Sequence record: PV714129.1 | DNA from: Escherichia phage Mizar | Length of the DNA stretch: 64,000 nt | Strand: one strand, 5' to 3' | Shown: in pieces, positions 13,824 to 14,167 of the stretch | Layout of the letters: each line of letters starts with the position of its first letter | Numbering within the stretch: position 1 is the stretch's first letter | Notes under the pieces: model-generated | What the model saw: the letters and a program-made list of their open reading frames with translations, nothing else | Databases searched by the model: none | Told to the model about the DNA's origin: nothing | Position numbers and translations under genes: made by a program

Positions 13824-14093
13824 TTATTTCTGTGCAATTTCGATGTAAGTTTTCAAAATATTTTGCCAATTAGGCATACCTTCTTGGACATATGCTGGAG
13901 AACCGTCTTTGTTTTTGAATGATGCAAGTTTATCAGTGGCCCAATAACCTTTAGCTCGAGCTTCAGAATCAACTTTCATCCATACTTTGTTGAAGGCATT
14001 ACCATTAACTTTTGCACCATATTTTTCTACTAACTTAACTGCTTCAGCTTCCAGAACTTTTAAAGTATCTCTTAAGAAACGTGCTTTAGTCAT
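13824..14093 (-). CDS. hypothetical 89-aa protein, antisense to the capsid gene cluster
   Basis: ORF on the - strand between 23 and 24; early-type promoter at 14124-14153; RBS gaggag upstream of the ATG; no recognisable domain. Confidence 0.6.
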   Translation of the reverse strand: MTKARFLRDTLKVLEAEAVKLVEKYGAKVNGNAFNKVWMKVDSEARAKGYWATDKLASFKNKDGSPAYVQEGMPNWQNILKTYIEIAQK

Positions 14094-14123
14094 TTTGTTT
14101 ACTCCTCTGTAGTTGATAAGTCT

Positions 14124-14153
14124 ATAGTATCACGTACCAAATACGTTGTAAAC
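14124..14153 (-). promoter_or_regulatory. early (host sigma-70 type) promoter for the 89-aa antisense gene
   Basis: On the - strand: GTTTAC, 18-nt spacer, TGaTACTAT (extended -10); fits the T4 early promoter pattern. Confidence 0.5.
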
Positions 14154-14159
14154 AATCTT

Positions 14160-14167
14160 TATAAATA
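14160..14167 (+). promoter_or_regulatory. late promoter TATAAATA for gene 24
   Basis: Exact TATAAATA ~28 nt upstream of the gene 24 ATG. Confidence 0.6.

Follow-up and report, generated by a model that had tools for sequence, protein, structure and literature searches.

We analyzed a 64,000-nt stretch of DNA from Escherichia phage Mizar (record PV714129.1; hereafter the window), in which a small open reading frame (ORF) of 89 codons lies on the minus strand between two late genes, gene 23 for the major capsid protein and gene 24 for the capsid vertex protein. The original prediction had placed an 89-aa ORF opposite the late structural operon, and its coordinates, minus-strand orientation and ATG start were confirmed (Table 1). 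Orthologs of genes 21, 22 and 23 on the plus strand come before it, and gene 24 is followed by rnlB, 24.2 and 24.3 on the minus strand. The region around the ORF showed 99-99.6% identity to Mosigvirus genomes such as PhAPEC2, JS09, HX01, APCEc01 and AV110, and we assign the genome carrying it to Mosigvirus, the RB69-like T-even phages. The product matched phrog_6003 over residues 1-89, that is, at full length (E = 2.1e-45), and was 100% identical in PhAPEC2, AV110, APCEc01 and others. The PhAPEC2 record labels the product as similar to RB69ORF188c, and the ORF shows both the full-length similarity and the antisense position between genes 23 and 24 that mark members of this family. It is the already annotated hypothetical gene RB69ORF188c, not a new discovery. 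RB69ORF188c (NP_861878) and its Mosigvirus orthologs are the identical gene, differing in nothing material, and every record calls it a 'hypothetical protein'; a literature search found no paper naming RB69ORF188c. One 90-aa family member from a 173-kb phage contig (P0006) was named 'NADPH-dependent curcumin reductase CurA' by one source, an evident mis-annotation.

The ORF is a real protein-coding gene under protein-level selection. A tblastn search yielded 239 phage records, with a full-length single match in 237; about 120 records had at least 95% identity (Mosigvirus) and about 119 had 30-38%. Repeating tblastn at an E value of 10 brought nothing further. The distant copies, at 30-38% amino acid identity, were syntenic and antisense between genes 23 and 24, and were found in Gaprivervirus VR20, Dhakavirus 04086, Tequatrovirus G28 and several metagenomic T4-like contigs. 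When codons were compared at 11 loci, synonymous differences were saturated (proportion of synonymous differences, pS, 0.6-0.9), the nonsynonymous proportion (pN) was 0.16-0.25 within subgroups, and omega was ~0.1-0.2 where the synonymous rate (dS) was estimable. Since pN is low while pS is saturated, the protein is under purifying selection. The original prediction had named frameshifts or stops in close relatives as evidence that would overturn it; the near-complete set of full-length copies and the purifying selection point the other way. We consider it very probable that this real gene is also an early-expressed accessory gene.

The gene is preceded by a promoter of the T4 early type, 30 nt upstream of its ATG, which can be written as GTTTAC-N15-TGATACTAT, as GTTTAC-N18-TACTAT or as TTTACA-N17-TACTAT. 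The coordinates first proposed for it (14124-14153) held, and the notation was amended, the N18 spacer running to the -10 hexamer and not to the TG. On the minus strand the order is TATTTATA (the reverse complement of the gene 24 late box), AAGATT, GTTTAC, 15 nt, TGATACTAT, a 16-nt leader, GAGGAG, 8 nt and ATG. In T4 early promoters, GTTTAC lies at -36 to -31 and the -10 element is conserved (Nolan et al., 2006; PMC1524935). The Mizar promoter has GTTTAC, a 17-18 nt spacing, TAnnAT and the TG extension, and it agrees exactly with the published PST/T4 consensus TTTACW-N17-TAYWAT of promoter early stem-loop (PeSL) elements (PMC4122927). The pattern GTTTAC-N14-16-TGNTAYTAT occurred 7 times in the window against 0.01 expected, every copy being on the minus strand with an ATG-initiated ORF beginning 28-42 nt downstream; on sequence grounds, this class of promoter is genuine in Mizar. 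The -35 element, spacing and -10 element were kept in 8 T4-like loci despite coding divergence to 30% identity, the promoter being conserved in Gaprivervirus, Dhakavirus, Tequatrovirus G28 and metagenomic relatives, and a GGAG-type Shine-Dalgarno sequence was retained at every homologous locus. Transcription would start near 14117.

Table 1. Features of the gene 23/24 interval of phage Mizar (positions in the window)
Feature	Position	Strand	Remarks
89-aa ORF (stop codon included)	13824..14093	-	ATG start at 14093; RB69ORF188c / phrog_6003 family
-35 element GTTTACA, T4 early type	14147..14153	-	GTTTAC hexamer 14153-14148
Extended -10 element TGATACTAT	14124..14132	-	TACTAT 14129-14124, TG 14132-14131; matches PeSL -10 consensus TAYWAT
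Shine-Dalgarno sequence GAGGAG	14102..14107	-	8 nt before ATG
Gene 24 late promoter TATAAATA	14160..14167	+	Divergent from early promoter, in its AT-rich UP-element position
UUCG hairpin and T-tract, gene 23 terminator	13795..13823	+	Distal cassette boundary; GGGAGAC-TTCG-GTCTCCC at 13796-13813
Gene 23, major capsid protein	12203..13771	+	Flanking late gene
Gene 24, capsid vertex protein	14195..15478	+	Flanking late gene

The early promoter abuts the gene 24 late promoter, which was conserved in all states of the 23/24 locus. The gap between the late TATAAATA box and the early -35 hexamer is 6 nt, not the 7 nt given in the original prediction. At the other end, the hairpin separates the stop codons of gene 23 (13771) and the ORF (13824); it folded stably on either strand (-16.4 and -13.5 kcal/mol; z scores of about -4.5 and -5), with no shuffled sequence equalling it; no known RNA family was found in the 23/24 interval. 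For RB69, an early promoter Pe:109605 on the minus strand (hidden Markov model score 29.9), an overlapping late promoter Pl:109573 and a terminator '23-><-RB69ORF188c' on the plus strand only were predicted by Nolan et al. (2006; PMC1524935 and its supplements), and the promoter, late promoter and terminator anatomy described here is that published prediction.

Some further observations were made on this arrangement and on gene 24. A second divergent early/late pair lies at 55685-55735 on the minus strand, where a plus-strand late box, read as TATTTATA, is 3 nt from GTTTAC and the early promoter drives a 305-aa minus-strand ORF, with an architecture like that at the 23/24 junction. Just 3' of the AAGGAAAAA ribosome-binding region, the gene 24 start codon (ATG, 14195) is overlapped by a mini-ORF of two codons, ATG CAA TGA, at 14190-14198 on the plus strand. 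Two gene 24 paralogs in tandem, for capsid vertex proteins I and II, adjoin the cassette at L002 (VR20; 1-2394), L007 (1337-3901) and L009 (1338-3897), so that Gaprivervirus and two metagenomic T4-like phages have two gene 24 copies where the Mizar window has one.

The interval was aligned between the Mizar window, T4, Dhakavirus 04086 and the metagenomic locus L014. The aligned loci had common boundaries, one being a block of late promoter, early promoter, leader and start codon, the other the UUCG/CGAA hairpin. The original prediction had called the locus variable and proposed comparing it across T4-like genomes; four states were found. The slot was empty in most Tequatroviruses and Klebsiella T4-like phages, with ~83 nt between genes 23 and 24; in KarlGJung, for example, the hairpin follows the late TATAAATA box after ~18 nt and there is no early promoter, and in the empty-slot Tequatroviruses the gene 23 flank was 95-99% identical to that of T4. 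The early promoter and the ORF were found together in Mizar, other Mosigviruses, Gaprivervirus, Dhakavirus and Tequatrovirus G28. In phage 04086, the promoter and ORF were followed in tandem by a SegD homolog, and vB_EcoM_005 gave an equal three-piece match, apparently the same state. A promoter-like sequence and segD only were found in T4, RB18 and 51 other records. Because the four states keep identical boundaries, the early promoter and ORF are gained and lost as a unit, and since most Tequatroviruses do without the cassette, the ORF is dispensable for a T-even phage. The SegD homolog of 04086 (L004, OR842557.1; 2771-3442) is an unannotated 223-aa GIY-YIG ORF, 57% identical to T4 SegD, which begins 5 nt past the stop of the RB69ORF188c-type gene and ends before the gene 23 hairpin.

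The slot was also recognized correctly at the outset as that of segD, which T4 carries in the matching position and orientation. Upstream of T4 segD (L006, NC_000866, ~2440-2500, minus strand), the sequence ATTTACA-N17-TATTAT with TG abuts the gene 24 late box and is homologous in position to the cassette early promoter. A conserved Met of SegD (annotated codon 4, aligned to Met1 of the 04086 homolog) stands at the start-codon position of the ORF. These correspondences suggest that T4 segD inherited its early promoter, leader and start-codon position from the cassette. In a time-resolved omics study, T4 segD was classed as early RNA and middle protein, and SegD accumulation was recorded in the mass spectrometry intensity table (PMC9697503 supplements). 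Early expression of the ORF has good backing from the comparisons, and the RNA class of T4 segD, whose promoter-like sequence is homologous to the Mizar promoter with its closer fit to the consensus, backs early transcription of the slot indirectly.

The protein has 89 residues, an isoelectric point (pI) of 9.6 and a net charge of ~+5.5; it is hydrophilic and contains no Cys or His. Across the family the pI is 8.0-9.9, Cys is absent, and no signal peptide or transmembrane segment is evident from sequence. A confident AlphaFold2 model built on a 14-sequence alignment had a mean predicted local distance difference test score (pLDDT) of 91.4 and a predicted template modeling (TM) score of 0.76, and it places a helix at residues 3-25, a second at 31-48, a beta-hairpin at 52-60 and 66-70 and a last helix at 76-88. 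The BFVD model of a family member with 31% identity, independent of the AlphaFold2 run, had the same fold (TM 0.84). Residues M1, K3, F6, G31, N32, N35 and Q70 were invariant in the widest alignment (the polar ones being G31, N32, N35 and Q70), and L14, L21, N30, A45 and S57 were nearly so. In the model, helix 2 is capped by the N-G-N-x-x-N motif, and Q70 is the last residue of the beta-hairpin.

The original prediction had recognized no motif in the protein, and this stands: a sub-threshold match to DUF4859 was the sole Pfam signal, and NCBIfam and PADLOC were empty. DUF4859 was rejected (17.9 bits against a cut-off of 22.6), as only 2 of 14 members matched it, and matches to Ca_bind_SSO6904 and DUF5380 were as inconsistent across members and were rejected too. 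A GIY-YIG catalytic domain was also looked for in the 89-aa protein with no Pfam match, so it is not SegD-like. The PDB profile search gave nothing below an E value of 0.04. Sequence and structure searches of the kind first suggested for this protein, run on PDB and BFVD, returned no relative outside the family.

Copies outside the 23/24 slot were found in an exhaustive HMMER scan of 1.84 billion representatives, which gave 9 hits; a scan of IMG/VR returned isolate-type genomes only. Two giant-protein homologs, P0022 and P0024 (1347 aa with 9 matched stretches and 3916 aa with 11), were artefacts: when re-scored, each repeat, of the Big_2-type immunoglobulin kind, gave 2-12 bits at an i-Evalue >1e4, the weak scores summing. 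Their whole-sequence E values of 1e-15 and 5e-7, which look significant, arise only from adding up repeats that match the beta-hairpin below threshold, and could mislead automated annotation. P0020 was discarded as a chimeric contig. After removal of artefacts, the family consisted of the T4-like copies and a few divergent members. P0014 (locus L015) is the first of a run of small ORFs diverging from baseplate genes; P0021 (L011) lies in a series of small ORFs on the same strand, one of them a T7 0.6-like gene, on a contig with short matches to FelixO1-type Erwinia phages of ~84 kb; and P0023 (L012) is downstream of a GpJ-type tail-tip gene on a contig related to 42-kb Serratia siphophages. 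These copies had sigma-70-type promoters, TGTTATTAT, TTGAAT-N17-TATTAT and TTGACG-N17-TATATT, and since they carry promoters of their own, the gene travels as an autonomous single-gene transcription unit. A downstream hairpin was present in L011 and L012, and in L015 the promoter of the next ORF follows directly instead. That next ORF (L015, 2768-2840) is served by a separate GTTTACA-N14-TGATACTAT promoter, and its leader is nearly identical to that in the Mizar window (TATGGACCTATCAACTAC...GGAG), which indicates a shared regulatory cassette preceding unrelated small genes.

Both ends of the Mizar cassette recur in the window. The promoter-leader string TGNTAYTATRGACYTATCAA has a second occurrence at 52378-52397, where the 18-nt hairpin GGGAGACTTCGGTCTCCC and a T-run come before it, immediately behind gene 32, which makes that copy a canonical PeSL. 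The hairpin GGGAGACTTCGGTCTCCC itself was present in four identical copies against 0 expected, at 13796-13813 (+), 37180-37197 (-), 52449-52466 (-) and 60773-60790 (+), and canonical PeSLs with this hairpin upstream of early promoters lie at 37114-37197 and 52360-52466. Each boundary of the 23/24 cassette thus belongs to a regulatory family that is repeated in the genome. According to a proposal by Comeau, Arbiol and Krisch, modules are shuffled by way of such families; these authors also noted that PeSLs are infrequent in the conserved structural-gene block (PMC4122927). Beside the gene 32 ortholog (52473-53375), in the interval 51549-52470 on the minus strand, the PeSL drives a 128-aa ORF and then a 120-aa ORF; these have similar N-terminal halves (M-x-IGK-x-YIINP...) and are apparently tandem paralogs.

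Taken as a whole, the data are best explained, and with fair probability, by an early accessory cassette that encodes a host-binding factor. The cassette is self-contained, made up of promoter, leader, Shine-Dalgarno sequence and 89-codon gene, and is inserted on the early strand with the gene 24 late promoter on one flank and the gene 23 terminator hairpin on the other. Early in infection, host sigma-70 polymerase in its unmodified form would start at GTTTACA/TGATACTAT, and an mRNA of ~300 nt would yield a small, soluble, basic protein. Early transcription in Mizar, the ending or processing of the transcript at the hairpin and everything said of molecular function are inferred. The protein would act as a non-essential accessory factor whose gene has been transferred by itself, as one unit, among unrelated phages, and we tentatively propose that it binds stoichiometrically a host macromolecule conserved among Enterobacterales. 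Its target may be an acidic protein or a nucleic acid, and its effect either help in takeover or counter-defence, as with other small early proteins of T4 and T7. This effector proposal draws on the small, basic, soluble, early and dispensable character of the protein, its portability among Enterobacterales phages and its conserved polar residues. A bolder form, in which the RB69ORF188c family is a new-fold single-gene early effector that neutralizes a conserved enterobacterial immune component or essential host factor and, carrying its own promoter, is exchanged among T4-like, FelixO1-like and siphoviral phages, we regard as rather doubtful.

Several observations weigh against the early accessory cassette and its host-binding product. 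A generic sigma-70 scan of the 2-kb region around the ORF picked up the promoter (TTTACA-17-TACTAT, with TG) but showed no local enrichment (4 promoters found, 5.2 expected), and a literature search found no Mosigvirus transcriptome. Edgell et al. (2010; PMC2988022) stated in a review that no segD-specific promoter had been found and guessed that the transcript is vanishingly low, so consensus-based promoter calls at this slot are disputed; promoter inheritance from the cassette would explain the early-class segD RNA and the detected protein despite that review. At the hairpin, the U-tract is on the gene 23 strand only. The original prediction had the ORF and gene 23 converge on this hairpin, and the hairpin is indeed common to both; lacking a U-tract on the ORF strand, it is a canonical terminator for gene 23 only and convergent termination does not follow, so that a transcript running past it antisense to gene 23 is possible. 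VR20, unlike the Mizar window, has a T-tract on the ORF strand. Two copies of the gene are disrupted: that of mogra, the sole frameshifted close relative, has lost a single A from an A5 run, and the 310Ecol104PP record has a shortened product of 64 aa. A non-coding ORF as the explanation of the mogra frameshift was rejected, only 2 of 239 copies being disrupted, and both disruptions are consistent with dispensability in the laboratory. As to function, Foldseek found no relative in PDB and, in BFVD, none beyond the 31%-identical family member; NCBIfam and PADLOC gave no match, and Pfam no assignment above threshold. The fold may be new, and its novelty is provisional because the alignment was shallow (14 sequences) and the structure searches covered PDB and BFVD. 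Guilt by association was of no help, the out-of-slot neighbours all being unannotated PHROGs apart from one weak MotA-like match.

The original prediction had noted that small early genes at variable loci of T-even phages are often host-takeover or anti-defence factors. A more specific account would have the protein inhibit a bacterial immune system, i.e. act in counter-defence only. The gene is probably early, is small, dispensable and patchy, and is passed between unrelated Enterobacterales phages as a single-gene unit. Such an early, small, dispensable, patchy and transferable profile is typical of known anti-defence genes. We nevertheless consider this account unlikely, as the protein matched no annotated family in Pfam, NCBIfam or PADLOC, no solved inhibitor structure was found with a related fold, the genes beside it in other phages carry no annotation, and it is basic where DNA-mimic anti-restriction proteins are acidic.

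It is very unlikely that the gene serves a selfish element or inter-phage competition, either as a passenger or partner of SegD or as a factor against co-infecting phages, and not the host. The slot is the SegD insertion site, T4 SegD begins at the start-codon position of the ORF, and ORF and SegD homolog stand in tandem behind one promoter in 04086 and apparently in vB_EcoM_005. Against this, more than 230 genomes have the ORF without segD and 53 have segD without the ORF, no endonuclease was called beside the homologs in the FelixO1-like and siphovirus contigs, and the ORF has no nuclease motif.

Still less probable is a role at the RNA level, in which the transcript acts as an anti-late RNA on the 3' end of gene 23, or the early promoter occludes the gene 24 late promoter, with the ORF incidental. 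Wherever the slot is occupied, 6 nt separate the early -35 element from the late TATAAATA box, and with no U-tract behind the hairpin on the ORF strand, read-through antisense to gene 23 is conceivable. Against this, the amino acid sequence has been kept despite saturation at synonymous sites, and so has a strong Shine-Dalgarno sequence; the protein is also encoded at loci unrelated to genes 23 and 24, and in most Tequatroviruses these two genes, nearly identical in sequence, are expressed without the early promoter. A capsid-related factor, whether an assembly helper or a minor structural protein beside the genes it serves, is the most improbable explanation: the position between genes 23 and 24 is strictly conserved in four Tevenvirinae genera, but the ORF is on the opposite strand behind an early rather than a late promoter, is absent from most Tequatroviruses although their gene 23 flank is 95-99% identical to that of T4, has homologs in early-type runs of small ORFs and beside tail genes, and is not among the structural virion proteins (gp22, gp23, gp24) marked in the PhAPEC2 record. 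The RNA-level, capsid and homing explanations are all disfavoured because conservation is at the protein level, copies occur away from genes 23 and 24, the gene is absent beside near-identical capsid genes, and it is independent of segD in more than 230 genomes.

If the host-binding effector is real, it would have a new fold and possibly a new target among phage early proteins, in a genus widely isolated for therapy, and it would be a previously unrecognized anti-defence or takeover module of a kind that homology-guided screens miss systematically. In a 2026 preprint on AV110, 45 Mosigvirus early proteins chosen by homology to T4 early proteins were screened for growth inhibition; RB69ORF188c was excluded from that screen because T4 lacks the ORF. 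If it is not real, the ORF is an ordinary annotated hypothetical gene of modest interest and a reasonable candidate for functional screening. In either case, the 23/24 junction is a clean four-state case of cassette exchange within the conserved structural block of T4-like phages.

Compared with known systems, the cassette agrees with T4 segD in position, orientation, start-codon site and distal hairpin, and the promoter-leader is homologous, with ATTTACA in T4 where the Mizar cassette has GTTTACA. The proteins are unrelated, SegD having 223 aa with a GIY-YIG domain and the ORF product 89 aa without a motif. JS98 gp173 and VR7 gp190, which represent the type found in Dhakavirus, Gaprivervirus and Tequatrovirus G28, share the slot, orientation, promoter/leader and hairpin boundaries; the predicted fold is alike (BFVD TM 0.84), and N-G-N-A-x-N, W51 and Q70 are conserved, whereas amino acid identity is only 30-38% and the beta-hairpin and C-terminal helix differ in sequence.

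PeSLs are mobile regulatory cassettes of T4-type phages (Arbiol et al., 2010; Comeau et al., 2014; PMC4122927). The cassette resembles a PeSL in its consensus promoter, its AT-rich upstream region and the Shine-Dalgarno sequence and ATG at its 3' end, and like PeSLs it is tied to insertion, deletion and replacement polymorphism between close relatives. It differs in that no stem-loop lies immediately 5' of its promoter, where the late promoter and start of gene 24 are found instead, in that its hairpin is downstream of the ORF and inverted, and in its place inside the conserved structural-gene block. Thus promoter, Shine-Dalgarno sequence, start codon and indel association were present and the upstream stem-loop was not, and because the stem-loop differs in position and orientation we call the cassette PeSL-related or moron-like and not a PeSL. 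Morons, as described by Hendrix and colleagues, are units of promoter, gene and terminator inserted between genes that are adjacent in relatives, and classical morons are expressed from prophages. The cassette, likewise, has its own promoter, would be transcribed independently of the surrounding late operon, and is inserted between genes 23 and 24, which stand ~83 nt apart in most Tequatroviruses, the slot being empty in these and in KarlGJung. It differs in being an early lytic gene of a virulent phage and in having no evident terminator on the ORF strand. From the four states of its locus and its divergent relatives in other phage types, we classify the cassette as a dispensable, mobile early unit of the moron/PeSL kind.

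Small early host-directed proteins of T-odd and T-even phages, such as T7 gp0.6, T4 MotB, Alc and Emp of Mosigvirus AV110, would be the nearest functional parallels, being alike in size class, early expression and dispensability. They have no sequence or fold similarity to the ORF product, and the likeness is one of analogy and not of membership; the family member P0021 is nonetheless encoded within a small-ORF run that holds a T7 0.6-like gene.

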